Shown: positions 20,159 through 62,988 of the stretch, in pieces | Layout of the letters: each line of letters starts with the position of its first letter | Position numbering within the stretch: the stretch's first letter is position 1 | NCBI RefSeq assembly: GCF_964213995.1 | Contig: NC_135804.1 | Location: 57,908,001 to 57,972,000 of the forward strand | Length of the DNA stretch: 64,000 nt | Direction of reading: 5' to 3' | From: Mustelus asterias | Taxonomy: Eukaryota | Notes under the pieces: model-generated | The model's input: the letters and a program-made list of their open reading frames with translations, nothing else | What the model was told of the DNA's origin: nothing | Database searches by the model: none | Translations under genes and position numbers: made by a program

Positions 20159-20973
20159 TTAATAAAACAAGAGCTCATATGCTACCATGTAGCCACTATT
20201 ATAAACATAGAGTTTCCTATCTACTGGGTTGTAGTGGACGTTTGCCACATGTGGAGAATATTTGACAAACCGGATATTGAGATTTTTGGCCTCTTGGTTA
20301 GTGACTGTGTCATACATGTAAAATATCTCCTCTTCAGTATCGCTGATATACCGGGTGGCATAAAGCACCCCACAAACCACAAAGGTGTTGGTTACTGCTT
20401 TCTTAAAGAGCTTTGTTTTCCAGGTCTGCAGCACAACCAAACTAATGCTGTCTATTTTACTAAATACAATATTGCCATAATTCTTCTCAGTAGCATAAAT
20501 GACCCAAATGCCATTTTCGTCCACAGAGAAATCCATATCTGTGTGACCGTAGCAGTCATAATAACAGTAAGGGAACTTATTATTAAAACCAGCGTCGGGA
20601 AGCAGAACATTTGTGATAGCTTTTGTCACCATGTCAAACCTGCACATTTGCCCGGTATTATAACAGTTGTAATACAGAGACTGGTTGTAAACCACGACCC
20701 CAGGACCCTGTATCGCATTCGGAGTTGTGTATGACGGTTTTACCGAAATATCAATGTTGGATTTTGCTGTCAGGAAGTTTTTGTAAGAATCGTAGGTTCG
20801 GATCGCATTTCCATAAATATTGGAGGACAGCAGTGCCATAACCCAGTAGACTTGCGGGCTTCCAGGCATTGAATCCATACCCCAACCTCCGTAAAGGTAT
20901 GATGTGCCATATGGATTGAGTTGTGCCAATACCGGCTCACTAACATTGCGTAAAATTCCTCCGGAGCAGTTTC
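20159..20973 (-). CDS. Olfactomedin-like gene A, terminal exon encoding the whole OLF beta-propeller domain
   Basis: ccttgtag acceptor (phase 1), open to TAA at 20159. Hallmark motifs GWGMD, QGPGVVVYNQSLYY, DMDFSVDENGIWVIYAT, QTWKT, NTFVVCGVLY, YNPVDRKLYVY. Joined CDS is ~461 aa. Confidence 0.95.
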
Positions 20974-21415
20974 CTACAAGGAACACAGTTAGATTATAAT
21001 TGCATTTTCTTCAAACTATTTTTTCAATAATATTTCTTCATACAGAGACAATAAAGCGAATAAACATTTCTTGTTATACCTGTCAATCTCAAACCATCTA
21101 CATTATTCCCAACAGGCTCAATCTATGAACCCTTTCCCATCAGACACTAACAACACCCTAACCATTCCCACCTACTTAACACATAGCCCATTTTTTTCCC
21201 CCAGATTAAATCCCAACCATGATTTTCCATCAATCTCAAGCCATTTCTATGCTAACCACTAGAGTTAATTCTTCATGAATAAGAGTTGGAAAATGCATGA
21301 ATGTTGTTATCCTGTGAAGGATCTTTGTGTTACATTTTTGCTCCAAATAACTCTGTACTATAATGATCTGTGGAGTACATCCTCCTGACTCTATTTATGA
21401 CTCCTCGGAAATTAT

Positions 21416-22526
21416 GGGGCGATTCTCCTAACAGATTTCTAAATGCTGAATTGACGGGAAAAATGGTGTAATTCACGATTGTACTTTCAGTGGGAGCTCA
21501 GACTCGAATTTCCCACACTGTGCAGTGCAGAGGTCACAATCGTGAATATCATTAAAAGTTAGGGGGTGGGGGCCTATTCACTCCGGAGTCTGATAGTTCC
21601 GGGCCTCTGCGCCAGCGCAGTGGCCCCAAACTGTCAGCCTCCCATTTGCTGGCCAGCTCAATCGCTGGCCAGCCCGGGCCCTCGCAGTGCTGCCCCTCTC
21701 CTCCCCACTAATGGCCCGATTGCGGCCCCCACCCCCACAAGCATTCCTGGGCCAGCCCCACCCCATCCCATCCCAGGGCGCCCTGATCTCCAGCACGCCC
21801 CCCACCCCAGCAGTGACGATCCCCCCTCCCCCCACCCCGGCAGGCCGCCCCCCCCCCAGCTCGCCCCGATTGCTGGCTTCCCTCCAGCCCCCACCGATAC
21901 CAATGCAGAGTGGCAGCGGAACCCCCAACCCCAGCAATCACCCCACAGGCCCTGCCCCCACCTGGCCCGGCTCCATCTGACCCCGCCCCCATGGCACTGC
22001 CTTCCCAGGCCCTGCCCCCTTGGCACTGCCTGATGCCCAGTGGGCAATGCTAAGGTGCCCACTGGGCATGGGCACTTTGCCCCTTGGGCAGTGCCATGGG
22101 GCACAGGCTGGCACTGCCAGGGTGCCCATGTCCAGGGGGCACCACCCTCTTTGTCGCCCGACCCCAGGGGGGCCCTGATTGCCCCCCTTCACTCCAGTGG
22201 CGTCTCCTGCTAGTTCACCAAAAGTGGGGAGCTACTCTAAACCTGCCGGAGTGAAATACTCCTGGCGGGCTGGGAGAAGCTATCGGGCCAAGAAAATTCA
22301 GTCCTGGGCCCAATCATGACATTTAAATTACATTAAAAATAAATTAAAATCTCTTACCTGGCCTTCCCACCGGTTTCCAGCGTGGTCTCGACCACGCCTG
22401 CTCTCCAGCGGTGGGAGACGGGCATGCGTCAGGGACGCATGCGTGAATCCCACGAATCGGCGCACGCATGCTTCTCCCAACACGACCCACCAAATAATTA
22501 GCGGGCCGGAATGGGAGAATCGCCCC
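21416..22526. mobile_element. GC-rich non-autonomous DNA transposon (Harbinger-like MITE)
   Basis: 13-bp TIRs ggggcgattctcc (21416-21428) and ggagaatcgcccc (22514-22526); internal tgggca/tgccca palindromic repeats. Confidence 0.8.
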
Positions 22527-22594
22527 CTACATTTTTCCCAACTTTCTCCCCTTATCCTTGCCTAAAGGCATTGGTTCCTCCTGGTATATGACTA

Positions 22595-23354
22595 CGGTCA
22601 TGATGTGGAGATGCCGTCGTTGGACTGGGGTAAACACAGTAAGAGTTTTAACAACACCAGGTTAAAGTCCAACAGGTTTATTTGGTAGCAAATACCATTA
22701 GGTTTCGGAGCGCTGCTCCTTCGTCAGATGGAGTGGAAATCTGCTCTCAAACAGGGCACAGAGACACAGAATCAAGTTACAAATACTGATTAGAATACGA
22801 ATCTCTACAACCAACCAGGTGTTAAAGATACAGACAATGTGAGTGGAGGGAGCATTAAGCACAGGTTAAAGAGATGTGTATTGTCTCCAGGACAGCCAGT
22901 GAGATTCTGCAAGTCCAGAAGGCAAGCCGTGGGGGTTACTGATAGTGTGACACGACAGCGCAGAGTCGCTGAGCAGAAACTGATAGCCAAGTTCCGTACA
23001 CATGAGGACGACCTAAACCGGGATGTTGGGTTTATGTCACACTATCAGTAACCCCCACAGCTTGCCTTCTGGACTTGCAGAATCTCACTGGCTGTCCTGT
23101 CTGGAGACAATACACATCTCTTTAACCTGTGCTTAATGCTCCCTCCACTCACATTGTCTGTATCTTTAAGACCTGGTTGGCTGTAGAGATTCGCATTCTA
23201 ATCAGTATTCTGTAACTTGATTTTGTGTCTCTGTGCCCTGTTTGAGAGCAGATATCCACTCCATCTGACAAAGGAGAAGCGCTCCGAAAGCTAATGGTAT
23301 TTGCTACCAAATAAACCTGTTGGACTTTAACCTGGTGTTGTTAAAACTCTTACT
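22595..23354. mobile_element. Penelope-like element with long inverted pseudo-LTRs
   Basis: Arms ~22639-22952 and ~23036-23354. Centre encodes RRVAEQKLIAKFRTHEDDLNRDVGFMSHYQ*. TSD (t)atatgacta at 22585-22594 and 23354-23363. Hammerhead motifs at 22695-22731 (-) and 23261-23297 (+). Confidence 0.88.
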
Positions 23355-25405
23355 ATATGACTAAGGCACAGGAACCAGTTTCCTAGTATCTCTTCCGTAT
23401 GACCATTCTTTAAGTGTGAGTCCAGTCAGTGTATTTTAGCAGGTTGTAATTAAGCCCTAGTATCTTCTCATGTGTTATTCACATGAACATACAGACACAC
23501 TTCCAAAATATAGATTACTACATAATAATTAGAAGCTCATATGATTTGCCTCCCTATTCCAGACTGTTGAGGCTAGTTGTATAAGCTTATTGTAAACTCT
23601 GGAATTCCCTACCCAAACTTCACCTTGGCTGGCATCTCCCGGTCCTGTCTGCTGTGGGAATTGTCGCGGGCGGAATGAAAAATTTGACGGACCAGCAAGA
23701 GATCTGTTGACTTTGGGACTGGAAAATCCTACCCCTTCTCCCTACTTACCTTAAAACCTGTTTGAGCAAGCTTTTGGTCACCCATCCTAATGTCTCTTCT
23801 TAGGCTCAGTCTTGATTTTCGTGTGGAGCACCTTGGGCTGTTTTACAACCTTAAAAGTACTAAATAAATGCAAGTTGTAGTTGGTGACCGATTAACTCAA
23901 AATAAACTAGGAACCAAATCTTGCTTTTTCTAATCCTTGAGGCTCAGTTATACATTAGTTTTACTGACTGAATCTATGGCATAAAAATTACAATTTCATG
24001 TGTTCAGCATTGAGATGGCATGTGTAAGAAACAATTATAATTATTTTACTCTGACAATTGAATCGCTGCAATTCTTTCTCGCTGAAATAGCCACAAAGAA
24101 TAACATAAATTATCTAAATTGTTTCCAATCATATTGGTTGAAGTCAACATTGCTGCTCTCTTAATGAATGAAAAAGTAGCCTCCTGATATGTAAAATGAG
24201 AGAATATTTTCAGTTAAACATTAATTTAGAAGTCTCCTGATCTTGAATTTGCTCCTGAGTCAGTCAGCCTGAAATCTCAGGTACATCCAGCTGTGTCTTG
24301 CACCTTGCAGAGACAGCCAGTCTTCAGATCCATCACCGGATTCCAGTCACCAAGAGTATTCTCAATTTATGTTTTTAAAAATGCACATACTGATTACTCT
24401 GTGACTGTTTTCCCGCCTTTGCTTCTTTCCTGCTCCCAACTGCTTTTATGTTGTTCATTTAATTTTGGAGGCTCAGTAACTGGATAAAACGACTGCGAGG
24501 CTACGTAAAAGAGATAAACAGCATAAATCCTAGGAGTCAGCTCATTGGTTCTGGCCACTAGAAAATCTGAGTAAACAAACAATATAAAGCAGCTTTTCCA
24601 AAGCTGGCAACTCTCACTGGGGCACTGATGTCAGCAGTCCTCCAGGATCATCCTAAAATGGACATTTCCCTTCAGCGAATATGAACAATAGGTGATGACA
24701 GGTTACATAGTTGACAGCAAGAACTTACATTTCACTGTAGTAAAACATTTGAGGCACTGCACAGGAATACATTCAGACAAAAATTGAAGCTGAGACAAAG
24801 AAGGGGATTTTAAAACAGGAGACCAATGATTTGGTCAAAGAATTGGGTTTAAAACAGAGTCTTAAAGGAAGGGAGGGATTGAAAAGTTTTAGGAAGGAAT
24901 TCCAGAGTTGAGTTCCAAGGCAGCTGAAGGCATGGCTGCCAGTAATAGGGTGAAAGTAGTCAGGGTTGCAAAACACACCAGACTTGGAGGAATACTGAAT
25001 TCCAAGAGGGCTGTAGAACTTGAGGATATTACAGAGATAGGAACAGGTGAACACAGTCTTGTCACCAGACAATATCCGCATTCATACACTTCAGGACTAT
25101 CTGGGCAATCAGGTGTAGAAATCCTGTCCGATGCTTCATTCCCTATCTTGAGTAGACGAATACAGTTAAAGTACCTTGACTACAACCCTGACTGGGATTG
25201 AGCCTGGTTTGTGTTATTCAGCAAGTGTTGCATTTAGGAATTACTGTGATAGTCATACAAACCTTTACATAAAAACATTAAATATTGTTCAAGCAGTTTA
25301 AATTCAAATGAATATGGCAGGTATTAATGTTTATTTTGTTACGGTAACAAGATGAAGGTGTGGTCTTGGTAACTAATATGTGCAACTGATAATATGTAAT
25401 CTCAC

Positions 25406-25538
25406 CAATGGGTAATTTGCCATAGACAGAGAAGCTCTCCAAACGGTTCTTCATTCTCTTCAAGTAGTCTTTCATGGACAGTAGGTTTTGTTTGTCATGT
25501 TGCTGCAAGTTTTTCACATTGAGGCGGGCATCCAGCAT
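25406..25538 (-). CDS. Olfactomedin-like gene A, exon 4 (MLDARLNVKNLQQHDKQNLLSMKDYLKRMKNRLESFSVYGKLPI-G)
   Basis: atccag acceptor, gtgaga donor, 133 bp, phase 0/1. Resembles the 'L..DK.N.L......LK.RL' segment that precedes the OLF domain. Confidence 0.88.
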
Positions 25539-25560
25539 CTGGATCACAAATAGAATTCAT

Positions 25561-28500
25561 TACATAGCCTGTTTATTATTGGGGGTAATTAGCAATCTTT
25601 TTTATTACTAGGCTAATGAACAGTCTGATTATTATTGGGGTAATGAACAGCCTGGTTATTATTGGGGTAATGAACAGCCTAGTTATTATTGGGGTAATGA
25701 ACAGCCTGGTTATTATTGGGGTAATGAACAGCCTCGTTATTACTGGGGTAATGAACAGCCTGGATATTACTGAGGTAATGAACAGCCTGGTTATTATTGG
25801 GGTAATGAACAGCCTGGTTATTACTGGGGTAATGAACAGCCTGGTTATTACTGGGGTAAGGAACAGCCTGGTTATTACTGGGGTAATGAACAGCCTGGTT
25901 ATTATTGCAGTAATGAACAGCCTGGTTATTACTGGGGTAATGAACAGCCTGGTTATTACTGGGGTAATGAACAGCCTGGTTATTACTGGGGTAATGAACA
26001 GCCTGGTTATTACTGGGGTAATGAACAGCCTGGTTATTACTGGGGTAATGAACAGCCTGGTTATTATTGGGGTAATGAACAGCCTGGTTATTATTGGGGT
26101 AATGAACAGCCTGGTTATTACTGAGGTAATGAACAGCCTGGTTATTATTGGGGTAATGAGCAGCCTGGTTATTATTGGGGTAATGAACAGCCTGGTTATT
26201 ATTGGGGTAATGAACAGCCTGGTTATTATTGGGGTACTGAACAGCCTGGTTATTACTGGGGTACTGAACAGCCTGGTTATTACTGGGGTAATGAACAGCC
26301 TGGTTATTACTGGGGTAATGAACAGCCTGGTTATTACTGGGGTAATGAACAGCCTGGTTATTACTGGGGTAATGAACAGCCTGGTTATTACTGGGGTAAT
26401 GAACAGCCTGGTTATTATTGGGGTACTGAATAGCCTGGTTATTACAAGGGTAATACATAGAAATACATAGAAACCCGATAGTGCAGAAGGAGGCCATTCG
26501 GCCCATCGAGTCTGCACCGACCACAATCCCACCCAGGCCCTACCCCCACATATTTACCCGCTAACTACGCATCTCAGGGACAATTTTTAACCTGGCCAAT
26601 CAACCTAACCCACACATCTTTGGACTGTGGGAGGAAACCGGAGCACCCGGAGGAAACCCACGCAGACACGAGGAGAATGTGCAAACTCCACACAGACAGT
26701 GACCCGAGCCGGGAACCGAACCCGGGACCCTGGAGCTGTGAAGCAGCAGTGCTAACCACTGTGCTACCGTGCCGCCCCGTATGAACTGCCTGTTTATTAT
26801 TGGAGTAATGAACAGCCTGGTTATTACTAAGGTAATGAACAACATGGTAATTACTGGGGTAATGAACAGCCTGGTTATTACTAAGGTAATGAACAACATG
26901 GTAATTACTGGGGTAATGAACAGCCTGGTTATTATTGCAGTAATGAACAGCCTGGTTATTATTGCAGTAATGAACAGCCTGGTTATTACTGGGGTAATGA
27001 ACAGCCTGGTTATTACTCGGGTAATGAACAGCCTGGTTATTATTGCAGTAATGAACAGCCTGGTTATTACTTGGGTAATGAACAGCCTGGTTATTACTAA
27101 GGTAATGAACAACATGGCAATTACTGGGGTAATGAACAGCCTAGTTATTATTGCAGTAATGAACAGCCTGGTTATTACTGGGGTAATGAACAGCCTGGTT
27201 ATTACTGGGGTAATGAACAGCCTGGTTATTACTGGGGTAATGAACAGCCTGGTTATTACTGGGGTAATGAACAGCCTGGTTATTACTGGGGTAATGAACA
27301 GCCTGGTTATTATTGGGGTAATGAACAGCCTGGTTATTACTGGGGTAATGAACAGCCTGGTTATTACTGGGGTAATGAACAGCCTGGTTATTATTGGGGT
27401 AATGAACAGCCTGGTTATTACTGGGGTAATGAACAGCCTGGTTATTATTGGGGTAATGAACAGCCTGGTTATTATTGCAGTAATGAACAGCCTGGTTATT
27501 ATTGCAGTAATGAACAGCCTGGTTATTACTGGGGTAATGAACAGCCTGGTTATTACTGGGGTAATGAACAGCCTGGTTATTACTGGGGTAATGAACAGCC
27601 TGGTTATTACTGGGGTAATGAACAGCCTGGTTATTATTGGGGTAATGAACAGCCTGGTTATTACTGGGGTAATGAACAGCCTGGTTATTACTGGGGTAAT
27701 GAACAGCCTGGTTATTATTGGGGTAATGAACAGCCTGGTTATTACTGGGGTAATGAACAGCCTGGTTATTATTGGGGTAATGAACAGCCTGGTTATTATT
27801 GCAGTAATGAACAGCCTGGTTATTATTGCAGTAATGAACAGCCTGGTTATTACTGGGGTAATGAACAGCCTGGTTATTATTGGGGTAATGAACAGCCTGG
27901 TTATTACTGGGGTAATGAACAGCCTGGTTATTACTGGGGTAATGAACAGCCTGGTTATTACTGGGGTAATGAAAAGCCTGGTTATTACTGGGGTAATGAA
28001 CAGCCTGGTTATTATTGGGGTAATGAACAGCCTGGTTATTATTGGGGTAATGAACAGCCTGGTTATTATTGGGGTAATGAACAGCCTGGTTATTATTGGG
28101 GTAATGAACAGCCTGGTTATTATTGGGGTAATGAACAGCCTGGTTCTTATTGCGGTAATGAACAGCCTGGTTATTATTGGGGTAATGAACAGCCTGGTTA
28201 TTACTGGGGTAATGAACAGCCTGGTTATTACTGGGGTAATGAACAGCCTGGTTATTACTGGGGTAATGAACAGTCTGGTTATTATTGGGGTAATGAACAG
28301 CCTGGTTATTATTGGGGTAATGAACAGCCTGGTTATTATTGGGGTAATGAACAGCCTGGTTATTATTGGGGTAATGAACAGCCTGGTTATTATTGCAGTA
28401 ATGAACAGCCTGTTTATTATTGGGGTAATGAACAGCCTGTTTATTATTGGGGTAATGAACAGCCTGGTTATTATTGGGGTAATGAACAGCCTGGTTATTA

Positions 28501-29500
28501 CTGGGGTAATGAACAGCCTGGTTATTACTGGGGTAATGAACAGCCTGGTTATTACTGGGGTAATGAACAGCCTGGTTATTACTGGGGTAATGAACAGTCT
28601 GGTTATTATTGGGGTAATGAACAGCCTGGTTATTATTGGGGTAATGAACAGCCTGGTTATTATTGGGGTAATGAACAGCCTGGTTATTATTGGGGTAATG
28701 AACAGCCTGGTTATTATTGCAGTAATGAACAGCCTGTTTATTATTGGGGTAATGAACAGCCTGGTTATTATTGGGGTAATGAACAGCCTGGTTATTATTG
28801 GGGTAATGAACAGCCTGGTTATTACTGGGGTAATGAACAGCCTGGTTATTACTGGGGTAATGAACAGTCTGGTTATTATTGGGGTAATGAACAGCCTGGT
28901 TATTATTGGGGTACTGAACAGCCTGGTTATTATTGGGGTAATGAACAGCCTGGTTATTATTGCAGTAATGAACAGCCTGGTTATTATTGGGGTAATGAAC
29001 AGCCTGGTTATTATTGCAGTAATGAACAGTCTGGTTATTATTGGGGTAATGAACAGCCTGGTTATTATTGGGGTAATGAACAGCCTGGTTATTATTGGGG
29101 TAATGAACAGTCTGGTTATTATTGGGGTAATGAACAGCCTGGTTATTATTGCAGTAATGAACAGCCTGGTTATTATTGGGGTAATGAACAGCCTGGTTAT
29201 TATTGGGGTAATGAACAGCCTGGTTATTACTAAGGTAATGAACAACATGGTAATTAGTGGGGTAATGAACAGCCTGGTTATTACTAAGGTAATGAACAAC
29301 ATGGTAATTACTGGGGTAATGAACAGCCTGGTTATTATTGCAGTAATGAACAGCCTGGTTATTATTGCAGTAATGAACAGGCTGGTTATTACTCGGGTAA
29401 TGAACAGCCTGGTTATTACTAAGGTAATGAACAGTCTGGTTATTATTGCAGTAACAAACAGCCTGTTTATTACTGGGGTACTGAACAGCCTGGTTATTAT
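25561..29500. repeat. 27-bp tandem satellite (ATGAACAGCCTGGTTATTAYTGGGGTA), ~130 units in two blocks, in gene A intron 3
   Basis: Exact 27-nt period, seen as a 9-aa periodicity in the ORF track; interrupted by a SINE at 26455-26778. Confidence 0.98.
26455..26778 (-). mobile_element. Full-length young HE1-like SINE inserted in the satellite
   Basis: 5' end GGGCGGCACGGTAGCACAGTGGTTAGC, B box GGTTCGGTTCC, (ttctatgtat)n tail. Confidence 0.92.
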
Positions 29501-30288
29501 TAAGGATAATTGGAGATCTGTTTATGGTAAGAGGTAATCAGCAACTTGTTTATAAATGTGAAATAAAGAGGTTTAAGAGGAGAGGAAACAGATAAATTCA
29601 CAAAAGGGGGACAGATTAGAGATGGCAAAAAGAGGATGAGAAGATAGGCAGTTGATAAGGAGAATGGATCAGAAATGAAAGTGTAAAAAATAATTTCAAT
29701 AATAAATTGATGCAGTGGCCTGGGACCCTGCATAAGGAGCGGGCAGCAACTCACTTTCACAAAGCTGGCTGAGGATTGCCAGCTTGAGATCCCTCAGCAC
29801 TTCGTATAGGGAAGTGTAAAACTCAGTTATGATCAATTGCAATGGAAAATTTGATATATTTAATATCACAGAATTTCAAAAATGATAGTTGAATATCTTT
29901 CCCTTTGACTTTATTTTATTTCAGTAACGAAAGATGCAAGTGAAGAACTCGAAATGGGAGTCGTTGAAGAATAATTCCCACATGAAGTCAGTATTTCATA
30001 TCTGTGGGTTCAGAGGCAGGATAACAAGCTCTTGGCCTCACATTGCGATGATAGTAATACAACTGATTATGAAAAATATATATATTTTTATGTCTAAAGC
30101 TTTCTGCTACAGGCAGTCAGTATACTTGGAAGGAATGCAATTCAGATGCTGAGAGAGCAGGATAATTACTCATTTTAGCCTTGCAAGTAGTTATGTTAAG
30201 CAGCGTGAATGGACTTTTGTTTACTTAAGTTCCCCAGCGATTTATTATTAGAGTGTTTGACTCCCCCCCCCCCCCCCCCGCCAGAGAA

Positions 30289-30410
30289 TGTGGTTAAACA
30301 GCAGCTTATAATTGTAAAGCAATTCCACATTTAACATCACCAGTAGATGGGAGTGGTGATTTAGCCTTTATGGTTGTGATTCACAAAGCGTACAATTTCA
30401 GTACAACCAC
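30289..30410. repeat. 122-bp segment, exact inverted copy of 32151-32272
   Basis: Base-by-base reverse-complement identity checked by eye. Confidence 0.92.
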
Positions 30411-30442
30411 TCCTCCCCCCCCCCCCCAACTACCAGAGAATC

Positions 30443-33530: not shown

Positions 33531-33814
33531 TTTTTTAAAAATTGACAATAGATTTCTACTTGCCTATAGAACTTTGGCCAATTGAAAGTTGACAAAGATG
33601 AAATGGCATCCGATGGAAACAGAGTGACCTCAGGGTGATAAATGGAGTCAACCTAATTTGGTCCCCTCCCATTAAACATTCTCACTGGGTGAAGAGGGGT
33701 GGGGGCTAAAATCAATGCCATGGTCTGAACCATCACCAATCAAGTCCAGCAATCACAGTATTGACATGTGGCAATGTTACTATAAATACTGAAAACAAAT
33801 CCAGTTGATCTCAC

Positions 33815-41128: not shown

Positions 41129-41182
41129 AGCAGACAGCAGGGATACAAGGAACACGGCAAAAGTCAGAGAAATCGCAGCCAT
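41129..41182 (-). CDS. Olfactomedin-like gene A, exon 1: signal peptide MAAISLTFAVFLVSLLSA
   Basis: ATG at 41182, 18 hydrophobic codons, gtgagt donor in phase 0 compatible with exon 2. TATA-like element ~35 bp upstream. Confidence 0.85.
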
Positions 41183-41217
41183 CCCGAGAACTGCACTCCA
41201 ACCCGCGGGGAGACAGT

Positions 41218-41226
41218 TATTTAATA
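41218..41226 (-). promoter_or_regulatory. TATA-like box (TATTAAATA) of olfactomedin gene A
   Basis: Lies ~35-45 nt upstream of the signal-peptide ATG. Confidence 0.55.
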
Positions 41227-47867: not shown

Positions 47868-50800
47868 CTGGGTTACATTTGAACTGGAGGGGGACTAACA
47901 TCCTGGCGGGGAGATTTGCGAGAGCCACTCGGGAGGGTTTAAACTAGTTTGGCAGGGGGGTGGGATCCAAAGCAGTAGGGAGACAGAAGAGAAGTTTGAG
48001 GACAGCACGGAAGTTAAAGAGAGCACATGAATTAGTAAAGGCAGTGTCAGTAATCCTAGTACCAGACAGATCAGACAGAAGCAAGACAGAGAGCAAGGGA
48101 AGTCCAGATTAAACTGCATTTATTTCAATGCAAGATGCCTGACGGGCAAGGCAGGTGAACTCAGGGCATGGATGGGTACGTGGGACTGGGATATTATAGC
48201 AATTACTGAAACATGGCTAAGGGAGGGACAGGACTGGCAGCTTAATGTTCCAGGGCACAGATGCTATAGGAAAGATAGAACAGGAGGTGAGAGAGGAGGG
48301 TGAGTTGCACTTTTGATTAGGAAAGCATCACGGCCATACTGAGAGGGGATATATCCGAGGGTTCAGCCACTGAGTCTATATGGGTAGAACTGAGAAATAA
48401 GAAGGGGGAAATCACTTTGATAGGGTTGTACTATAGGCCCCCAAATAGTCAGCGGGAAATTGAGGAGCAAATATGTAAGGGGATTACAGATAGCTCCAAG
48501 AAAAATAGGGTGGTAATAGTCGGAGATTTTAATTTTCCCAACATTGACTGGGACTGCCATAGTATTAGAGGGTTGGATGGAGAGAAATTTGTTGAGTGTA
48601 TTCAGGAGGAATTTCTCATTCAGTATGTGGATGGCCCGACTAGAGAGGGGCAAAACTTGACCTCCTCTTGGGAAATAAGGAAGGGCAGGTGACAGAAGTG
48701 TTAGTGAGGGATCACTTTGGGACCAGTGACCATAATTCTATTAGTTTTCAGATAGCTATGGAGAATGATAGGTCTGTCCCAAAAGTTAATATTCTAAATT
48801 GGGGCAAGGCCAATTTTGATGGTATCAGGCAGGTACCTTCAAAAGTTAATTGGGGGAGTCTGTGGGAAGGAAAAGGGACGTCTGGTAAATGGCATGCTTT
48901 CAAAAGTGTGTTAACCAGTGTTCAGGGTAAACACATTCCTCTTAGAGTGAAGGGCAAGGCTGGCAGAAGTCGGGAACCCTGGATGACTCAGGATATTGAG
49001 GCCCTGGTCAAGAAGAAGAAAGAGGCACATGATGTGCATAGGCAGCTGGGATCAAGTGAATCTCTTGAAGAGTATAGGGGGTGTAGGAGTAGAGTTAAGA
49101 GAGAAATCAGGAGGGCAAAAAGGGGACACGAAATTGTTTTGGCAGATAAGGCAAAGGAGAATCCAAAGAGTTTCTACAAATACATAAAGAGCAAAAGAGT
49201 AACAAGGGAGAGAGTAGGGCCCCTTAAGGATCAACAAGGTCATCTATGTGAGATCCTAAATGAATATTTCTCATCAGTATTTACTGTTGAGAAAAGCATG
49301 GATGTTAGGGAACTTGGGGAATTAAATATTGATGTCTTGAGGAGTGTACATATTACAGAGAAGGAGGTGCTGGAAGTCTTAAAGCGCATCAAGGTAGATA
49401 AATCTGCGGGACCTGATGAGGTATATCCCAGGACGTTGTGGGAGGCTAGGGAGGAAATTGCGGGTCCCCTAGCCGAGATATTTGAATCATCGATAGTCAC
49501 GGGTGAGGTGCCTGAAGATTGGAGAGTGGCAAATGCTGTACCTTTGTTTAAAAAGGGCTGCAGGGAAAAGCCTGGGAACTACAGGCCAGTGAGCCTCACA
49601 TCTGTGGTGGGTAAATTGTTGGAAGGTATTTTGAGAGATAGGATCTACAGGCATTTAGAGATGCAAGGACTGATTAGGGACAGTCAGCATGGCTTTGTGA
49701 GTGGAAAATCATGTCTCACAAATTTGAGTGAGTTTTTTGAAGGGGTAACCAAGAAGGTAGATGAGGGCAGTGCAGTTGATGTTGTCTACATGGACTTTAG
49801 CAAGGCCTTTGACAAGGTACCGCATGGTAGGTTGTTGCATAAAGTTCAATCTCACGGGATCCAGGGTGAGGAATCTAAATGGATACAAAATTGGCTTCTG
49901 GGTGGTTTTCAAACTGGAGACCTGTGACCAGCAGTGTGCCTCAGGGATGAGTGCTGGGCCCACTGTTATTTGTCATTTATATTAATGATTTGGATGAGAA
50001 TATAGGGGGCATGGTTAGTAAGTTTGCAGATGACACCAAGATTGGTGGCATGGTGGACAGTGAGGAAGGTTATCTCCAATTGCAGCGGGATCTTGATCAA
50101 TTGGACCAGTGGGCTGACGAATGGCAGATGGAGTTTAATTTAGACAAATGCGAGGTGATGCATTTTGGTAGATTGAACCAGGGCAGGACTTACTCAATTA
50201 ATGGTAGGGCGTTGGGGAGAGTTACAGAACAAAGAGATCTAGGGGTACATGTTCATAGCTCCTTGAGAGTGGAGTCACAGGTGGACAGAGTGGTGAAGAA
50301 GGCATTCGGCATGCTTGGTTTCATCAGTCAGAACATTGAATACAGGAGTTGGGACGTCTTGTTGAAGTTGTACAAGATATTGGTACGGCCACACTTGGAA
50401 TACTGTGTGCAATTCTGGTCACCCTATTATAGAAAGGATTTTATTAAACTAGAAAGAGTGCAGAAAATATTTACTAGGATGCTACCGGGACTTGATGGAT
50501 TGAGTTATAAGGAGAGGCTGAATAGACTGGGACTTTTTTCTCTGGAGCGTAGGAGGCTGAGGGGTGACCTTATAGAGGTCTATAAAATAATGAGGGACAT
50601 AGATAAGGTAGATAGTCAATATCTTTTCCCAAAGGTAGGGGAGTTTAAAACTCGAGGGCACAGGTTTAAGGTGCGAGGGGAGAGATACAGAAGTGTCCAG
50701 AGGAGCAGTTTTTTTCACACAGTGGGTGGTGAGTGTCTGGAATAAGCTGCCAGAGGTAGTAGTAGAGGCGGGTACAATTTTATCTTTTAAAAAGCATTTA

Positions 50801-50947
50801 GATAGTTACATGGGTACGATGGGTATAGAGGGATATGGGCCAAATGTGGGCAATTGGGATTAGTTTAGGGGTTTAAAAAAAAAGGGCGGCATGGACAAGT
50901 TGGGCCGAAGGGCCTGTTTCCATGCTGTAAACCTCTATGACTCTATG
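47868..50947 (+). mobile_element. Long CR1 LINE: ORF1 esterase C-terminus plus near-complete frameshifted ORF2 (APE endonuclease + RT) and 3' tail
   Basis: GLHLNWRGTNILAGRFARATREGLN* (SGNH-type ORF1 end), IAITETW, YYRPP, VGDFNFPNIDW, SDH, then RT; tail ctctatgactctatg. Appears to sit inside a GC-rich MITE remnant. Confidence 0.95.
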
Positions 50948-53829: not shown

Positions 53830-54910
53830 TTTTTATTATTCATTCATGTGGGATGTGTGTGCCAAGCCAGCATTTATTGCCCATACCAAATTGCCCTTGA
53901 GAAGGTGGTGATGAGTCGCCTTCTTGAACTGTTGCAGTCCATGTAGTGTAGGTACACCCACACTGACTCAGTGACAGTGAAGGAATGGCGATATATTTCC
54001 CAGTCAGGATGGTGAGTGCTTTGGATGGGAACTTCCAAGTGTTTGCTGCTCTTGTCCTTCTAGATGGTATCCATCGTGGGTTTGGAAAATATTTTCTGAG
54101 GTGGGTTGGTGAGTTCCTGCAGTGCATCTTGTAGATGGTACACACTGCGGCCACTGTGCATTGGAGGGAGTGAATGCTTGTTGATGGGGTGCCAATCAAA
54201 CAGGCTGCTTTGTCCTGGATGGTGTCAAGCTTCCTGAGTGTTGTTAGAACTGCACTCATCACAGCAAGTATAGAGTATTCCATAACACTCCTGACTCATG
54301 CCTTGTGGATGGTGAGCAGGCTTTGAGGAGTCAGGAGGTGAGTTACTTGCTGCTGGATTCCTAGGATCTGACCTGCACTGAGAGCCACAATATTTATATG
54401 GCTGGTCCAGTTGACTTTCTGGTCAATGGTAACCCCCAGGGTGTTGATTGTGGGGATTCAGTGATGATAATGCCATTGAATGTCAAGGGCCGATGATTAG
54501 ATTCTCTCTTGTTGGAAATTGTCATTGCCTGGCACTTGTGTGGCACAAATGTGCAGCACAATGGCACAATTAGCACTGCTGCCTCACAGCACCGGGGACC
54601 CGGATTCAATTCCGGCCTCATGTGACTGTGTGGAGTTTGCACATTCTCGCCATGTCTGCGTGTGTTTCCTCCAGGTGCTCTGGTTGCCTCCCACAGTCCA
54701 AAGATGTGCAGATTAAGTTGACTGGCTATGCTAAATTGACCATTAGTGTCAGGAGGATTAGCAGGGTGATATGTGGGGTTATGGGGATAGGGCCTGGCTG
54801 GGATTGTTGTCGGTGCGGCTCAATGGGCCGAATGGCCTCCTTCTGAATGTAGGGATTCTATGATTCTCTGAAATGTCACTTGCCACTTGTCAGCCCAAGC
54901 CTAGATATTG
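53830..54910 (-). mobile_element. LINE 3' fragment with a nested SINE (~54553-54870, +)
   Basis: MEYSILAVMSAVLTTLRKLDTIQDKAACLIG; LINE sequence resumes after the SINE. Confidence 0.8.
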
Positions 54911-55848
54911 CATTTGAGACCTCAATAATCAATAATGGCAGTAAGTACTATCTTTGAAGTGTATGTTTGAGTATTATTGCACGTAATTTATGCTTAATAA
55001 GCCTTTGAATGTTTGATATCAGTATTTCCGGAGCTTTATGGGTTTTAAACAATAGGTAAAATATTTAATCATAAATAAAATCATATCCCAACACCCTTAG
55101 GAATGCTGCCAGCATGTGAATGTTCTGTACTTTCTTAAAGGACACTTTCGTTCCATATGAAACATAATTATAAAAACCGTGTCTGTAACTTACTTGATTC
55201 ATCCGTATATTGAAGATGGGCTGAACTGATTGGTTTCTTTTGCAAGGATGCAATGTTGTAAAAACCTTCGCCATGCACAAGAAAACCACCCCTGTTCTAC
55301 ATGATGGCTGTTGAGCCCATGGTAGGTGGTATTGTTTTCTGGCAACCTGTCTTATGATGAAATCATGCTGAAGACTGGTCTTCTTTGACACATGTAGGTA
55401 GGACTTCAAGGAGCATTTTGTATTTATTCACCAACATGTCTTAGAATCCCTACAGTGCAGAGGAAGCCATTCAGCCGAATAAGCCTGCACCAATAACAAC
55501 CCACCCTATCTCTAACCCCACATATAACCCTGTCAATCCCCTGACACTAAGAAGCAAATTACTTCATAAATTAATTCCCAATTTATCCATTTAGCATGGT
55601 ACTGGTGCCACTTAACACAATGGAGGGTATGGTCAATGTGAAGGTGGGACTTTGTCTCCACAATGTCAAGGGGTGTCTTTGGTCACTCCTACGCACACCA
55701 TCATGAAGAGGTGCATCTCTGAACAGTAGATTCGTGAGGTTGAGGTCAAGTGGAGTTTCGCTCTTGTTTTTCTCTCTCCACCTGTTGCAAGCCCAGTCCG
55801 GCAGTTATGAGGGACCTGATCAAATGCCTTCTGCCAATCCATATTTAT

Positions 55849-57517
55849 TATATTTTCCCCATTGAGAACTATAGCACAACATTAACAGTAATTAACAGTT
55901 CTGAAGAAGAGTCTACAGACTCGAAACATTAACTTTGTTTTTGTTTCCATAGACCTGCTGCGTTTTTCCAACATTTTCTGTTTTTATTTCAGATTTCAAG
56001 TACCTGCAGTATTTTGCTTGTATTAAGAGTGATTCAAAGTCCTATATTCTGAATGAGCAATTAATGTTTCCTTTAACATTGGTTGTTTTGGCTTTGCCCA
56101 CATGCCCACACTAATTCGCTTTCACTAGTGTACCATCCAAAATAAATTTTCTACAGGTATCAAACTCTGTGATTAAAATATTAGGGAAGAATGTCCATAG
56201 ACATTTAGTCACTTCTTAAAATATTCACCTCTTCAAAATACTCAATCAGATTCATCATGCATGACCTATCCTTTATAAGCCCATAGTAGCTATCTTTGAT
56301 CAGCTAAAAACATTCAAAGTGATCAGTCGCTCTAGCTTTAACTATAGACAACAGCAATTTCCCAACAACATATGTTAGGTTAACTTGTCCATAATTCCCT
56401 TGTTTCCCTTTCACCTTTCTTCATTTTTTAGTTAAAAAAGATAGAATTAGAACAAACAATATGTTTTCCTTGTAGCCTGTCAAACACAGGAGCAATATTG
56501 CTCCACATATGAACTATCCATAATTCATTACCAAGACACCACGTTTACAACTAGAATGCACACTGGAAATGTTGCTCTGCTGCACTAAGGGGTTAAATTA
56601 AGAGCTGATGTTCAGGCAAAGCATAGATCCTGTTTATAATCCACAGTGTACTTGAGCTACAAATGCTAGATGGGACAATGTAGAAGGTGAAGTTCTCCCA
56701 TCTCCATTTAATCCATTCTATTGCTGATCTGGTAATGTTCTGAGAAATGGCTTTGGACAATTTGTACTGATCAGTTTGTTGTTACTTAATTACTTCAGTC
56801 CATGTCAATACCACAGAGGAAAAGTAGTTCCCTCCACATCTCCAAAAAAGTGCAGCGTGAATCATTTAACAGTGGTCCCATCTGCCGGAGTAAGAGGAAG
56901 CACGGCTAAAAATGTTTTGCACACTCTGCATTGAGGTTACTAGTCTTCCCTGGCAATTGAGGAAATGCTATGAAAACTGCTGACTTTCAAACTTTAGTCC
57001 TCGGATTTGGTACACTTGTTGTAATGTCCTATTATGCAATAATTTGTTGTTCCATGTTTCACATATTAATCAGCTTTAACACTGGTGTCCTAATATTAGC
57101 ACCTAAATCAGTGGCTTCAACTGTATCATTTAATTCCTGGAAACTCATTCTGGAGCAAAGGAAAAAGAACTCTTCCCTAATATTTTAATCGCAGAGTTTG
57201 ATACCCGTAGGAAGTTTATTTTGGGTGATACACTAGTGAAAATGAATTTGTATGGACATGTAGGCAAGGCACAAAGTCAAAGCAACCAATGTTAAAGGAA
57301 ACATTAATTACTCATTCTGAATATAGGACTTTGAATCACGGTTAATACAAGCAAAATACTGCAGGTGCTTGAAATCTGAATTAAAAGCAGCAAATGTTGG
57401 AAAAACTCAGCAGGTCTGTGAGAGAAGAACTGAGTTAATGCTTTGAGTCTGTAGACTTCTTCAGAACTATTAATTACTGTTAATATTGTGCTATATTTTG
57501 CAATGGGGAAAATATAC
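55849..57517. repeat. ~260-bp diverged inverted repeat (~55849-56110 and ~57255-57517) containing a Penelope-type end
   Basis: For example gtgattcaaagtcctatattctgaatgagcaattaatgtttcctttaacattggttg matches the reverse complement of ~57276-57340 with few mismatches. Confidence 0.85.
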
Positions 57518-59199
57518 AAGACAACAGGGGAAGTTAAGCTTATAAAAATGCACAAGTCAGAGGTTGGGTCACAAGATTTCTATCCCCATATCCCATACAA
57601 CATCCATGCAAAGGGATTTGACAAGAGAGAAATACAGCTGATGGTTTTCGACAAGTATTGGTATATAACATCATGCTGCATAGGAGAGTGAATAAGGAAG
57701 ATAAGACAATCCTGTCAATACTGTATTAAATGACAACTAAGTGATTGTGGTAATTGCATATAGGCCCTAATAATGGTAGCAATATGAATTGTGAAGAATT
57801 GAAAAGTAATTGTTTTGTGATGGGTAAGTTTTTAAGTTTATTTATTAATTTCACAAGTAGGCTTACATAAAACTCTGATATGAAGTTACTGTGAAAATCC
57901 CCTAGTCACCACACTCTGGCACCAGTTCAGGTACACTAATGGAGAATTTAGCATGGCCAATGCACCTAACCAGCATGTCTTTCAGACTATGGGAGGAAAC
58001 CAGAGCACATGGAGGAAACCCACACAGACACAGGGATATCGTGCAGACTCCGCAAAGACAGTGATCCAAGTCAGGAATCGAAGCTGGGTCCCTAGCACTG
58101 TGAGGCAGCCATGCTAACCACTGTGCTGTTGTGCGGTACAGCTTTAGTCAACTCAAGAATATGGTGTTGTATTTGGACACTACTTGTGTCCGATTGGTTT
58201 GGGTGGGGAAGGGGTCTTTATACAGGGAAGTGGGTCATTTTAACCTCAGAGTAGTAGGAGAAGGAATTCCAAAGATAAAAATGATGAGGGAAGCAAATGA
58301 AACCACCTTTGTTACCTTTCCATCATATCAAGAATCTCATTGTCTGAGACTTGACTGGGGACTTGTTATGGAAACAGAGCAGATTTGGACACACCAAGGA
58401 TAAACTAAGGGATGTAGACTTTTAGAGGAAGAGGAAACAAGAGAATTATTGCTGAATATAGTGATACATAGCATGGGTGGAGAAACAGTGCCAATAAAAT
58501 GCAGTTCAATGCTAGGAGTATTCAGAGCACTGCTCCTTGAGCACTGCTCTTTAAGCACTGTGTGGGTGCTGCAAAGTAAGATGGTCTTGCACTATAAAAT
58601 CAGTTCATTCAAATAAACTTGTGGCAATCTCAGCACACAATGCATTATGCAAACAGATCATCCAACTTATTCGTATTCTCCTTCTCCAATTATTTCTGAA
58701 TGCTCTTAAGCTTAAAAGAAAATGGTAGATTAGTAGTATAAAAACAGGACGACTTGAGGGCAATTAGGGATGGGCAATAAATGTTGATCTTGCCAATGCC
58801 GCTGACATCCCATTTGTTTGCACAGGATTTTTCCACCCAATGTCCATAGACTTTTCGCTGCCTCTCCAAATTTTCTACCTCACCCACAAAGACTCCTGTT
58901 ACAGTTGGGACTGGAAAATCCCAGCAATTATTTTTATACAATTCACCATCATCCTCAGTTAAACTGTAGATAATTTCTGTTTAAAAATTGCAATCGAAGG
59001 TCAGACCATTATTGTAATGGCTCCAGTCACTTCCCTGCTAGTGTGATGATAGGATAGTAAAGATTTTCAGGGATTATGAACAGAGCTGTGATCTTACTTT
59101 TTAATAAAACTGTAATGATCTGAGCCAGGCTTTGATTAATTTAGCTAGAGGTCTCTAACACTCAACTGATGAAAAGAATAGCAAAAGGAAATAGAAACT

Positions 59200-59890
59200 A
59201 CTGAATGCTTTATTAACCATGCTCACAACCTGTCCTTGCCCCCTTCGATGACTTTAACATATAGATCCTCCGCTCCTGCACCCCTTTAGAATTGTACTCT
59301 TTATTTTATATTGTCTCTCCCTACTAGAACAAATCACTACACATTTCTCAGCATTGAACCCCATCTGCCACTTGTCCACATAGCTAGTGGATAGCATCAG
59401 ATTCTGGGCACCACTCTTTAGGAAGGATGTGAAGGCACTAGAGTGAGCACAGAAAAGATTCATGAGAATTGTTCCAGGGATGAGGAGCCTCATTTATGTA
59501 GGTAGATTGGAGAAATTGAATTTGGGACTATTTTCCTTGGAGAAGAGAAAGTTGAGAGGGATCTCAAATCATCAGGGGTCTGGACAGAATAGATAGAAAC
59601 TGTTACCGTTCATGAAAGCATCGTGAACAAGAGGGCATAGATTTAAAGTAATTGACAACAGAAGCAAAACTGATATAAAGAAAAACTTTTTCAGGCAGTG
59701 AGTGGTTAAAATCTGGAATGCATTGCCTGAGAATGTGGTGGAGGCAGATTCAATCGAAACTTTCAAAAGGGAATTAGACTTATCTGAAAAGGAAGAATGT
59801 GCAGGGTTACAGGTGAATGACACTCAGTGCATTGTACATTCAGAGAGCTGGCACAGACACATGGGTTGAATGGCCTTCTGCACTGTAACA
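59200..59890. mobile_element. CR1 fragment with an internal inversion (antisense ~59205-59380, sense ~59395-59890)
   Basis: VDKWQMGFNAEKC on the minus strand abuts a QFWAP.FRKDVKALE-like segment and the 3' UTR on the plus strand. Confidence 0.7.
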
Positions 59891-62554
59891 TTAAAATGAT
59901 AATGGAGCAGAAGATTGTAGACAATTGAGGAATTAATGGGAAAACTTTAGCAATAGTGAAGAATGGGAGTACTTGCAAAGGCTATATTAGACTATTGAAG
60001 GGTTTTCAAGGACAGGTTATAATGGGGCTGGCAGAACTATCAGATGAGTACCTCGCATTGGTCTTCAATCTTGAAGATGATGCTTGACTGCTAGAGTTTT
60101 AATGATAATGTTAATAATAAAACTAATAATATTAACATGGTTAAACATAGTGGCTGGAATTTTACCACCCCGCCCGCCAGGGGAATTGGAGTGGGCGACG
60201 GACGGACCATGGAAAGGTGACCTTGGGTGGGATTTTAAGGTTTCGGGACGAGCAAGGCTGTAAAATCCCGTCAATTGTTTTAGATAGAATTAAAAATCAG
60301 AAAATAAAACAGTTTATCTCTAAGGATTATTTAATTTTTAATCCTTTATGAGATGTAAGTGTAACTGACAAGGTCAGCATTTATTATCTATTTCCAATTT
60401 CCCTTGAGATAGTGGTAGGTAGTTGCGTTCTTGAACTGCTGCAGTCCATGGGGTGTAGTACATCTGTACTACAGTAAAGAAGGGAGTTCCAGGATTTTAA
60501 TCCATCTTCATCCATCCATGAAGGGCAACATGATTCCACATGTTAAAAAATATGTACTGTGGAAGCCCCCTTGCTATAGGATAGTTCTCAAAGACTGGAA
60601 GGAGGCTATTGTAGTCTCCATCTTTTATAAAAGGAAATAAGGTGGACCACAGTAATGATGGACCCATTAGTTTGACATCAGAATTCAGAAAAATGCTTAA
60701 TGCAGTCAGTCATTAGGGATGAAGGAAAGGATTACTTCAAAGAGGGTAACTTATTAGGAACACCCTGTATGACTTCAGAAAAAGGTATGTCTTACAAAGA
60801 AAGGACCTGTATTTACATACAACTTTAATGACCTCAGGCCCCACAGCATTCTGCAGCTAAGGGATAACTTTGCAGTGTGGCCACTGTTATAGTGTAACAA
60901 ACCAAGCAGTCAATTTGTTTACAGCAAGGTCCCATGATCAACAATCAGATAATGATCAGATTTTAGATCTGCTTTAGGGATTTTCATTGGGGACATTAAT
61001 GTGCTGAATCTTCCTGGTCCTGTGGAGGGAGTTTAAAGGCAAGACCAGAGTAAGCATTGAGATTAGGGTGTCAGCAGGCTATTCCTGCCTTTAGGCAATC
61101 TTGCCAGATGTGGATCATCAATGGCAGTGGCTGCCTACCTGGCAGCAGTGAATAGACAATAATTATCAATTAGGAAGCTAATGAGGGAGATGGAGAGCAT
61201 TCCACCAGCAGCTGCCTGATGAGTACTGATTTCAGAAGCACAATGGAGGCAGCCTTTCAATGCCAGGCCAGAGTGCCAGCAGAGCCAGAGGCTCCATGTC
61301 CCAATGACATGGTCATGTGCAGGACAGACTGTACCCATAGGCGGCCAGGCACACACCATCAGGGATGGCACCTGCCATGCGGAAGAATATTTTCTACGAT
61401 GGAAAGATTCTACCCAATATTGACCAGCATACCAGAGAGAAATCACCCACTCTTCGAATAGGGCTAAGGGATCATTTACCTGTAAGGACAGGTGGATGTG
61501 GCTGAATGTCTCATTCCAAAATTGGTACCTCTGACAGTGCAAAACCTCCTCAGTGCTACATTGAACTGTCAGCCTAGATTTTGTACTGAAATCTTTGGAG
61601 TGTGGCTTGAACCCCAGACCCCTGATTCAGGAACAGGAATATTACCACGGAACCACGCCTAACAATAAAGCAATACTGCATTTTGTGGGGGGCATTGGAG
61701 AGAAGTCACATTTTACTGTAATCACCCCAAAAAAACAGGAATTTAACAATAAAGATTGGTAAAATAAAGACTGATCTTAAAGGTTCCAACTAATTCAGTC
61801 ACCGAGCCAAATTTGCTCTGGATGGATGTCACATGAGATTTACAGCCTGGATTCTATGAAACAATCCAGGGTTACATTCACATGAACAAGAAACAGTGGG
61901 ATTCTAGTGACATGAAATGCAAGCAAAACTTCATCCCTTCCACTAGGGTTGCCAACTGTGATTAAATGTATTCCTGGAGACTTGATCCCACACAACAGCC
62001 ATTATTCAGCCAACACATCCATCCTTGTGACGCACTGCTTTCCTGCACCAATTGGAAAGCAAAAAGGCACATCACCCAATTGAATGATGCTGGATTGTCA
62101 ACCTTTCATTTCCCCCATTGTCAATATTTTTATATCTGGCACAGGGAAACGATCAAAGGATGTGACCAAAACTTTTTGAATGTCACTGTGATTTTTCTCC
62201 AGGGTCCTGGAGATCGATCTTGAATTTCTGCAGACTCCAGGCCAATCCTAGAGGGTTGGCAACCTTACCTTCTACCTACCCACTCTTGTTTGAGTCATTG
62301 AAGAGTCAGGTCAATGTGGTAACTGAGGCACAGCCCTTCCCACCTCACTTGATAGAGGATTCTTCTTTCTCTAACACACAAACGGTCTCAGCAAGGCTTT
62401 GGAAGTGCGGATGGTGGATGCCAGTGAACTTCTGGCAGACCCAGCGCTGAGTGGGTGACATTTTTAACCCACTCAATCACCATCGAAGAGGAACTTGTCC
62501 AGCGACGGGAGAGTTACTGTTATAGGAGGGACCCCTGGGTGAATCACGCCTCCC

Positions 62555-62590
62555 CTAATCCCCGCCCCCCCCCCCCATTTATATAAATAC
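62555..62590 (+). promoter_or_regulatory. GC box and TATA box of olfactomedin gene B
   Basis: cccgccccc at ~62561-62569, then tttatataaata at 62578-62589, ~50 nt upstream of ATG 62635. Confidence 0.7.
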
Positions 62591-62634
62591 TCATGTCTCT
62601 AGATAAGTTCCGCAACTAGAATTGGGTTGGAGCG

Positions 62635-62676
62635 ATGGGGATATTCGGCTTGTTTTTATTCCTGGGCTTTGCCTCT
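62635..62676 (+). CDS. Olfactomedin-like gene B, exon 1: signal peptide MGIFGLFLFLGFAS
   Basis: gcgATGG start context, 14 hydrophobic codons, canonical gtaagt donor, phase 0. Confidence 0.8.
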
Positions 62677-62841
62677 GTAAGTAGTGCATTCAATCTCCCA
62701 GTAATTGATCACAGGGAACATGACTGAGATAGATCTACACAATGAGGGGTGGGAATGGATTTATTCCTGACTCCAGTTTGATGCTGAGCGTTGATTCATT
62801 CATTTTGCATTGAATTCTCCCTTTGCCCACTATTTCATTAG

Positions 62842-62988
62842 GCGGATCGTGATGTTCTGGCAGAGGCTCGGGTCGCGAAGAGATGCTACTGCGATCTTCA
62901 GGTGTCAGATGGGCCATTCCCTCACAAACAATTTCAGCAACTGTACTCGGTCTCAGAGAGCTGCAGCCAGAGGCTGAACGTTCAGCAG
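62842..62988 (+). CDS. Olfactomedin-like gene B, exon 2 (ADRDVLAEARVAKRCYCDLQVSDGPFPHKQFQQLYSVSESCSQRLNVQQ); gene presumably continues past the window end
   Basis: Pyrimidine-rich cattag acceptor, gtgagt donor, 147 bp, phase 0/0. Aligns without gaps to gene A exon 2 (13 of 32 residues identical from RC.C to L). Confidence 0.82.

Follow-up and report, generated by a model that had tools for sequence, protein, structure and literature searches.

Two olfactomedin genes lying head-to-head

The window analysed in this study is a stretch of 64,000 nucleotides of Mustelus asterias (RefSeq assembly GCF_964213995.1, contig NC_135804.1, positions 57,908,001 to 57,972,000 of the forward strand). It carries two genes of the olfactomedin family arranged head-to-head, gene A reading on the minus strand from 41182 and gene B on the plus strand from 62635. 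The two belong to a real, old and little-studied subfamily of this known family. Their features, in positions of the window, are as follows.

41182-41129, minus strand: gene A coding exon 1, 54 bp, encoding an 18-residue hydrophobic leader, a predicted signal peptide
36090-35926, minus strand: gene A exon 2, 165 bp, with an N-terminal CXC motif and a third Cys; placed by tblastn and splice sites
34033-33815, minus strand: gene A exon 3, 219 bp, central coiled coil; placed by tblastn (68-83% identity) and splice sites
25538-25406, minus strand: gene A exon 4, 133 bp, C-terminal coiled coil; placed by splice sites
20973-20159, minus strand: gene A exon 5, 815 bp, OLF propeller domain and stop codon; AG acceptor, phase 1
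41220-41226, minus strand: putative TATA-like box of gene A, a pattern match
41183-62634, no strand: spacer between the start codons, 21,452 bp, repeat-containing, with reverse-transcriptase fragments
62562-62567 and 62580-62585, plus strand: putative GC box and TATA box of gene B, pattern matches
62635-62676, plus strand: gene B coding exon 1, 14 codons, hydrophobic leader, a predicted signal peptide
62677-62841, plus strand: gene B intron 1, 165 bp, GT..AG, phase 0
62842-62988, plus strand: gene B exon 2, 147 bp, with the CXC motif and third Cys; GT donor after 62988

An earlier, sequence-only reading of this stretch had described gene A as a minus-strand gene of five exons and about 461 residues starting at 41182, and this description was confirmed. 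All four introns are bounded by GT..AG, with phases 0, 0, 0 and 1, and the joined exons give 1386 bp encoding 461 residues in an intact frame with a single terminal stop. The last exon matched the Pfam OLF family with an E value of 4.3e-75 (252.9 bits against a cut-off of 23.9) and annotated shark and ray orthologues at 73-88% identity among the matches listed. Exon 4 was matched by orthologue proteins with E values of 1e-15 to 1e-18 in tblastn and encodes Phe at the position where B and bony-fish A carry a Cys at the end of the coil. Exon 1 matches the N termini of orthologues, and its leader is predicted to be a signal peptide; it is shorter by three codons than its counterparts in white shark, sawshark and sevengill. 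The predicted junction 41129/36090 is based on splice sites and orthologous proteins. None of the listed database matches, of 155-496 residues, was identical to gene A, though gene B is annotated, and the M. asterias model of gene A may be missing, longer or different in the databases. Intron 3 contains a 27-bp tandem array (about 145 copies, 84% matches, 25566-29501) which stops 27 bp short of the exon 4 acceptor, is open in several frames and could mislead gene models.

Gene B runs past the end of the window, which contains 189 of its coding bases. Its start at 62635, GC box, TATA box, leader exon and 147-bp exon were all located as described earlier. The exon-2 peptide is 100% identical to XP_078067227.1, annotated as "olfactomedin-4-like [Mustelus asterias]" (457 residues), of which residues 1-63 correspond to the two exons in the window and residues 1-14 to exon 1. 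The OLF domain that had been expected for gene B is present in this full-length protein (Pfam E value of 6.3e-66, 222.9 bits against the same cut-off), and the description of gene B as hidden in short exons reflected only the end of the window, since the exons match the annotated protein exactly. Chondrichthyan orthologues share 57-85% identity among the matches listed. When four public sequencing runs were compared over 61700-63300, position 62676 was joined to 62842 at GT..AG by one contig each in two of the four (X1 and X19); these contigs have 1484 and 1531 letters, of which 4 and 6 differ, and the two runs are from related organisms in two studies, with library type and tissue not on record. 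The junction had been proposed from the letters and now has contig support. Just upstream of gene B, a repeat at 61916-62293 occurs in many unrelated contigs of all four runs. The presence of only 189 coding bases in the window could suggest a chance match or pseudogene remnant, but that explanation is already refuted by the exact match to a full-length annotated protein, the chondrichthyan orthologues, the spliced contigs and a shuffle test (0 of 20,000) described below.

Age, linkage and spacing of the two lineages

The exon-2 peptides of A and B align without a gap over 32 residues, 13 of them identical (40.6%), as had been noticed previously, and this alignment score was reached by none of 20,000 shuffles. 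The claim of identical intron phases holds for introns 1 and 2, which are of phase 0 and lie at the same aligned positions in both genes. Overall identity between A and B is 39.5% over 438 columns. Database matches were assigned to A or B by means of profiles made from nine seed sequences each, the seeds being among the rows classed. The best 120 of 373 matches in the A search all classed as A and the best 120 of 386 in the B search all as B, and no tetrapod names were listed among them. Of 148 further representatives, 19 classed as A or B, the three named ones being from lungfish, catfish and paddlefish, and four named tetrapod representatives fell outside both groups.

A maximum-likelihood tree was computed with IQ-TREE from 53 chosen rows and 481 of 917 columns; human OLFM4, shark OLFM4, OLFML1-3, gliomedin and bullfrog olfactomedin were left out, and the outgroup rows are presumably noelin-like and myocilin-like. 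Support was 100/99 for the A clade, 100/100 for the B clade and 100/99 for A and B together. Each clade holds chimaera, rays, sharks, lungfish, gar and teleosts in species order, and both occur in lungfish, gar, sturgeon/paddlefish and teleosts. The sister group of A+B (100/97) consists of eel olfactomedin-4 with frog, lizard, pangolin, hagfish and lamprey rows, so that A+B lies outside the OLFM4-type clade, sister to the sampled OLFM4-type rows and not nested within them. Since chondrichthyans and bony fish are found in both clades, the duplication is older than the separation of cartilaginous from bony fish, which took place roughly 420-450 million years ago. By this tree, A and B are two lineages that separated before that split and are sister to the OLFM4-type proteins, not OLFM4 itself. 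The earlier view of A and B as real, divergently oriented paralogues of ancient origin, each with its own TATA-like box, is upheld.

UniRef names in the A clade include si:ch211-194m7.4/.8 and "olfactomedin 4-like 2", and in the B clade si:ch211-194m7.5. The lungfish A model XP_043935466.1, with 967 residues, a retroelement-like front and a repeated coil exon, is probably a gene-model error. The accessions XP_032891978-984 of Amblyraja radiata follow the order B, B, A, A, B, A, A, and the whole pair may be duplicated in that species.

A and B lie on the same contig in 16 of 16 chondrichthyans and in 23 of 30 bony fish checked, a call that rests on equal listed sizes of the carrying contigs and does not amount to adjacency; lungfish was left out because its size was rounded (2,000,000,000). 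The exceptions among the bony fish are seven (Scleropages, Arapaima, Coilia, Engraulis, Clarias, Xyrauchen and Menidia), for which further copies or assemblies may play a part. Neighbouring identifiers, among them XP_038662943/944, XP_067853528/527, GCC26443/442 and locus tags R3I94_022856/857/858, suggest that A and B are adjacent in other species as well.

According to a 2024 study, all four white-blooded icefishes lack eight orthogroups. Two of these are adjacent olfactomedin-like genes (OLFML/OLFML4) between SMPD3 and NDRG4, present as single copies in five of five red-blooded notothenioids and as 4 and 2 copies in zebrafish; the icefishes retain two olfactomedin-4 groups (PMC11575085). 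Part of another paper places ndrg4 on clone CH211-194M7 (PMC3487223). As the clone carries ndrg4 and the notothenioid pair lies beside NDRG4, the two are probably the same locus, and by position, names and copy number the pair lost in icefishes is probably the A/B pair; two zebrafish B proteins are among the matches listed. One deletion could remove both genes, and joint loss is therefore weak evidence of partnership.

The two genes had also been proposed to share an upstream region of about 21 kb and to be possibly co-regulated. Of the spacer, 26% has a second copy within the window, and Pfam RVT_1 was found at 48644-50742. A tblastn search with eight A/B proteins revealed no further olfactomedin exons in the spacer, nothing being better than an E value of 0.4. 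The 500-bp regions upstream of A and B have no common sequence longer than 9 bp, and no NF-kB-like sites were found in the 2 kb upstream of either gene. Bidirectional promoters are generally recognised where the starts lie within about 1 kb of each other. The 21,452-bp gap, the separate TATA-like boxes and the lack of common upstream sequence together argue that the spacer is no shared bidirectional promoter; each gene is likely driven from its own TATA promoter, and shared distal enhancers would be possible but not required.

Public runs were also searched for words of the gene A last exon and 3' flank, those with a share below 0.2 (13 runs) being set aside, and none of the matching runs was recorded as RNA. 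Runs X1 and X19 contain 0.36 and 0.44 of these words, besides spliced B. In X17 and X18, which are small assemblies containing 1.00 and 0.99 of the words, there was no cover of the B exons, a gap that proves nothing and was not counted, although disjoint expression would look alike. With a repeat-containing spacer of 21 kb and no common promoter sequence, co-regulation of the pair is at most a possibility.

Predicted oligomers and their alternatives

Both proteins begin with a hydrophobic leader of 14-18 residues on its own exon and have a heptad pattern in their coils. The AlphaFold2 model of the white-shark B orthologue (85% identical to B; mean predicted local distance difference test score, pLDDT, of 77) has helices at 42-61, 66-91 and 96-176 followed by a predicted five-bladed beta-propeller. 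With Foldseek, this propeller matched the myocilin and noelin OLF domains with a template-modelling (TM) score of 0.93 on the target and an E value of 3.5e-26.

Conserved columns were counted over 256 full-length A/B sequences, which include isoforms and close kin and are not independent. The CXC motif is present in both window genes and in 253 of the 256 rows, the other three being gaps. A third N-terminal Cys, 23 residues after CXC, is found in 255 of 256 rows, compared with 0 of 11 OLFM4-type rows. The coil-end Cys (Cys172 in B) is present in all 141 B sequences (31/31 chondrichthyan and 110/110 bony), in 90 of 92 bony A sequences, in lungfish A and in 10 of 11 OLFM4-type rows; among full-length chondrichthyan A sequences it occurs in 0 of 23 (the chimaera record was too short to score), window gene A having Phe in this column, and its loss there may have been a single event. 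By position, Cys172 would be the equivalent of Olfm1 Cys221. At core position 162, Asn is found in 123 of 141 B sequences versus Leu in 107 of 115 A sequences, and in the last coil segment two of the core positions are polar in B. The metal-site triad is Asp334/Asn382/Asn433 in 141 of 141 B sequences and Asp/Asn/His in 23 of 23 chondrichthyan A sequences, which suggests that the binding of the two propellers may not be the same. In the chondrichthyans and in all A sequences, a propeller loop holds a Cys pair.

OLFM1 is described as a V-shaped dimer of dimers whose legs are parallel coiled coils closed by an inter-chain Cys221 bond (PMC4463452). This bond precedes two propellers, and the N-terminal CXC region joins the legs (passages of PMC4463452 and PMC6857237). 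Bullfrog olfactomedin and OLFM4 are described as forming disulfide polymers (passage in PMC4206993).

Taking these features together, we consider it probable, at roughly 0.6, that the locus holds an intact head-to-head pair of old paralogues, each encoding a secreted, self-pairing coiled-coil protein that works like OLFM1/OLFM4. The leader would send the chain into the endoplasmic reticulum, where, by analogy with OLFM1, two identical chains would form a parallel coiled-coil leg with two five-bladed propellers at its tip. The B leg would likely be locked by a Cys172-Cys172 bond and kept in register by Asn162, and the shark A leg would be held by its hydrophobic core without a coil-end bond. 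The CXC motif and third Cys of the N terminus would likely link the legs into tetramers or larger disulfide polymers. To judge from the family and from scattered fish data, such polymers would offer several propellers to ligands on cell surfaces or in the matrix, in a mucosal, plasma or myeloid setting. Occasional mixed tetramers would be possible but not required. In sharks, an A-B leg would leave the invariant Cys of B unpaired, making B-B and A-A legs likelier, and the residue pattern would thus favour self-paired legs.

Several observations weigh against self-pairing as the whole account. The bonds, oligomeric state, site of action and ligand that it supposes are all matters of inference. 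The net charge of the coiled coil is +3.3 in shark and +1.3 in bony-fish A and -8.3 and -7.1, respectively, in B, which would suit mixing; the OLFM4-type coil is also acidic (-6.1). A 2+2 fold of the white-shark N-terminal halves of A and B gave a median score of 0.34, compared with 0.00 for the best of three controls, and pLDDT was 57-66 for A and B together versus 38-42 beside most unrelated partners. Linkage through jawed-fish history and the probable joint loss in icefishes are what a functional partnership would give. Finally, the two runs that contain part of the A last exon also carry spliced B, although contigs give no levels.

A rival view, expressed in the sequence-only reading as a heteromeric secreted polymer, makes A and B the co-regulated parts of a tetramer (A2B2) or polymer of mixed composition; we regard it as fairly unlikely. 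Here, an A-A leg and a B-B leg would be joined through the N-terminal region of the CXC motif and third Cys, two different propellers (Asp/Asn/Asn in B, Asp/Asn/His in shark A) would provide two binding specificities, and the need for matched output would keep the genes linked and make both vanish together. The third Cys that A and B have in common (255 of 256, against 0 of 11 OLFM4-type rows) and the opposite net charge of the two coils are consistent with it, as are the same-contig counts (16/16 chondrichthyans, 23/30 bony fish), the neighbouring accessions or locus tags in many species, and the loss of two adjacent olfactomedin-like genes in four of four icefishes against their single-copy state in five of five red-blooded notothenioids, in the passage already cited (PMC11575085). 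Olfm1 is also described as co-purifying with Olfm2, mixed tetramers being called unclear in the passages concerned (PMC4463452, PMC6857237).

The A2B2 model itself, with pLDDT of at least 61 for each partner and agreement between runs in at least 71% of contacts, gives weak support. Its score lies exactly at the mark. In the calibration, 51 of the 78 solved complexes and 2 of the 108 mismatches attained this mark, as did, on eukaryotes, 39 of 65 solved pairs lacking a like complex and 2 of 126 that were unrelated; scores of 0.60 or less were those of 5 of the 78 solved complexes and of all four mismatches that passed. Moreover, the controls included neither A4 nor B4, alignments were not used, folds of 2+2 copies are unlike the calibration set, and close relatives of a partner were untested or tend to pass. 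As OLFM1 and myocilin coils have already been solved, the score may reflect likeness alone. Neighbouring genes can remain linked without partnership and can go in one deletion, and the 21-kb spacer has gained retroelements. In zebrafish, the copy numbers are unequal (4 and 2; passage in PMC11575085), and a passage on kidney cells names only si:ch211-194m7.4, of the A clade, as a macrophage-like marker (PMC11505477).

A stricter form of this idea seems improbable to us. In it, A and B would be obligate heterotetramer subunits, with an A-A and a B-B leg connected by a three-Cys head peculiar to the subfamily and with two different binding sites on their propellers. The genes would have been linked since before the split and lost jointly in the haemoglobin-less icefishes and apparently in tetrapods, pointing to a task in blood or macrophages that icefishes can now do without.

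It would be a good deal more surprising if A and B formed a full-length 1:1 heterodimeric coiled coil, a Fos/Jun-like pair of acid and base. In sharks, the aligned segment 85-115 has a strongly acidic charge in B (-8.2) against a basic one in A (+2.2), and the polar residues at two B core positions could weaken a B-B dimer. However, the coil-end Cys is invariant in B and its counterpart is lost in chondrichthyan A (0/23), and in bony fish the charges of segment 85-115 differ far less between the two (A -1.6, B -5.6). In coiled-coil cores, Asn prefers an Asn partner, and the Asn opposite Leu at the core position of an A-B pair would be a poor match.

The suggestion of a role for the pair in some elasmobranch-specific secretion, olfactory mucus for instance, is very doubtful. 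The founding bullfrog olfactomedin is described as forming disulfide aggregates there (passage in PMC4206993), and an olfactomedin-4-like protein of unassigned clade is listed in carp skin mucus (passage in PMC5910588). Both clades, however, occur across jawed fishes, from lungfish, gar and sturgeon/paddlefish to teleosts, and a search of the open-access literature on olfactomedin with shark or elasmobranch yielded no study of this kind and none that links the pair to olfactory mucus. The fish mentions in the passages at hand concern macrophage-like cells, serum, gill and skin, mostly with no clade assigned: the zebrafish A-clade gene si:ch211-194m7.4 is a marker of kidney macrophage-like cells and is called largely uncharacterised (PMC11505477), and olfactomedin-4(-like) proteins of unassigned clade appear in carp macrophages (PMC7418020), in salmon serum, where two proteins rise together (PMC8066739), and in trout plasma (PMC7579410). 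An olfactomedin-domain match from the plasma of the Greenland shark bears a catshark accession, A0A401Q6K6, which differs from those of both A and B in that catshark; it was set aside.

If none of these readings holds, the locus is an ordinary old duplicate. Novelty is lower than had been assumed: the genes are known from automatic annotation, which covers B and orthologues of both, and the pair was probably noted in the 2024 icefish paper (PMC11575085). What stands as new is the division of an old sister group to the OLFM4-type proteins into A and B, together with the linkage across jawed fishes, the cysteine signature and a testable oligomer model. No study defining the A/B subfamily, its age or its orientation was found in the open-access literature, subscription papers such as a 2005 phylogeny cited in PMC4206993 being outside that scope. 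For immunology and proteomics of fish, the consequence is that many "olfactomedin-4(-like)" matches represent two old sister lineages rather than OLFM4, and that the functions of OLFM4 in mammals ought not to be carried over to them. The pair also offers a clean test of mixed olfactomedin tetramers, as shark A is without the coil-end Cys and both clades are present in zebrafish. Should A and B be the genes lost in icefishes, they make up 2 of only 8 orthogroups missing from all four species and provide a natural knockout.

Neighbouring features and closest known systems

Downstream of gene A, a WD40-repeat gene lies on the minus strand (2970-11850), with a CpG-rich region at 11600-11850 upstream of it. 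It resembles KATNB1 (katanin p80), a tentative name. Its exons are the following.

ATG at 11515, minus strand: first coding exon of the WD40 gene, with a GT donor
near 4830-4700, 3765-3649 and about 3050-2970, minus strand: further WD40 exons

Reverse-transcriptase-type retroelement fragments were seen at 1339-2505, 9800-11116, 48644-50745 and 63420-63943. A retroelement fragment in the first intron of the WD40 gene is flanked by two related GC-rich tandem arrays of a 30-bp unit (9577-9692 and 11206-11389).

Among named proteins, the closest to A and B are those called "olfactomedin-4-like" in RefSeq, which are named automatically; these names mix the two clades and confuse both with OLFM4. 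The teleost proteins named si:ch211-194m7.4/.8 and si:ch211-194m7.5 fall in the A and B clades, respectively. Teleost A keeps the coil-end Cys that chondrichthyan A is without, and several teleosts have an expanded A/B cluster.

OLFM4 and bullfrog olfactomedin (subfamily V) resemble A and B in having a leader, an N-terminal CXC motif, a coiled coil and a C-terminal OLF domain, and B further carries a coil-end Cys as well as an Asp/Asn/Asn triad of the kind given for Olfm4 in a passage of PMC4463452. A and B nevertheless form a separate, fully supported clade and differ from the OLFM4-type proteins in their extra third N-terminal Cys (0 of 11 OLFM4-type rows). The propeller-loop Cys pair further sets the chondrichthyan sequences and all of A apart from OLFM4.

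The tetramers of OLFM1 (noelin) and myocilin have the same propeller fold as that predicted here, at about 28-29% propeller identity, and the sequence features that define their V- or Y-shaped dimer of dimers, as set out in a passage of PMC4463452, are common to A and B. The third Cys, however, lies 23 residues after CXC in A and B as against 9 in OLFM1 and myocilin, and the third metal ligand is Asn in B and His in shark A in place of Asp.

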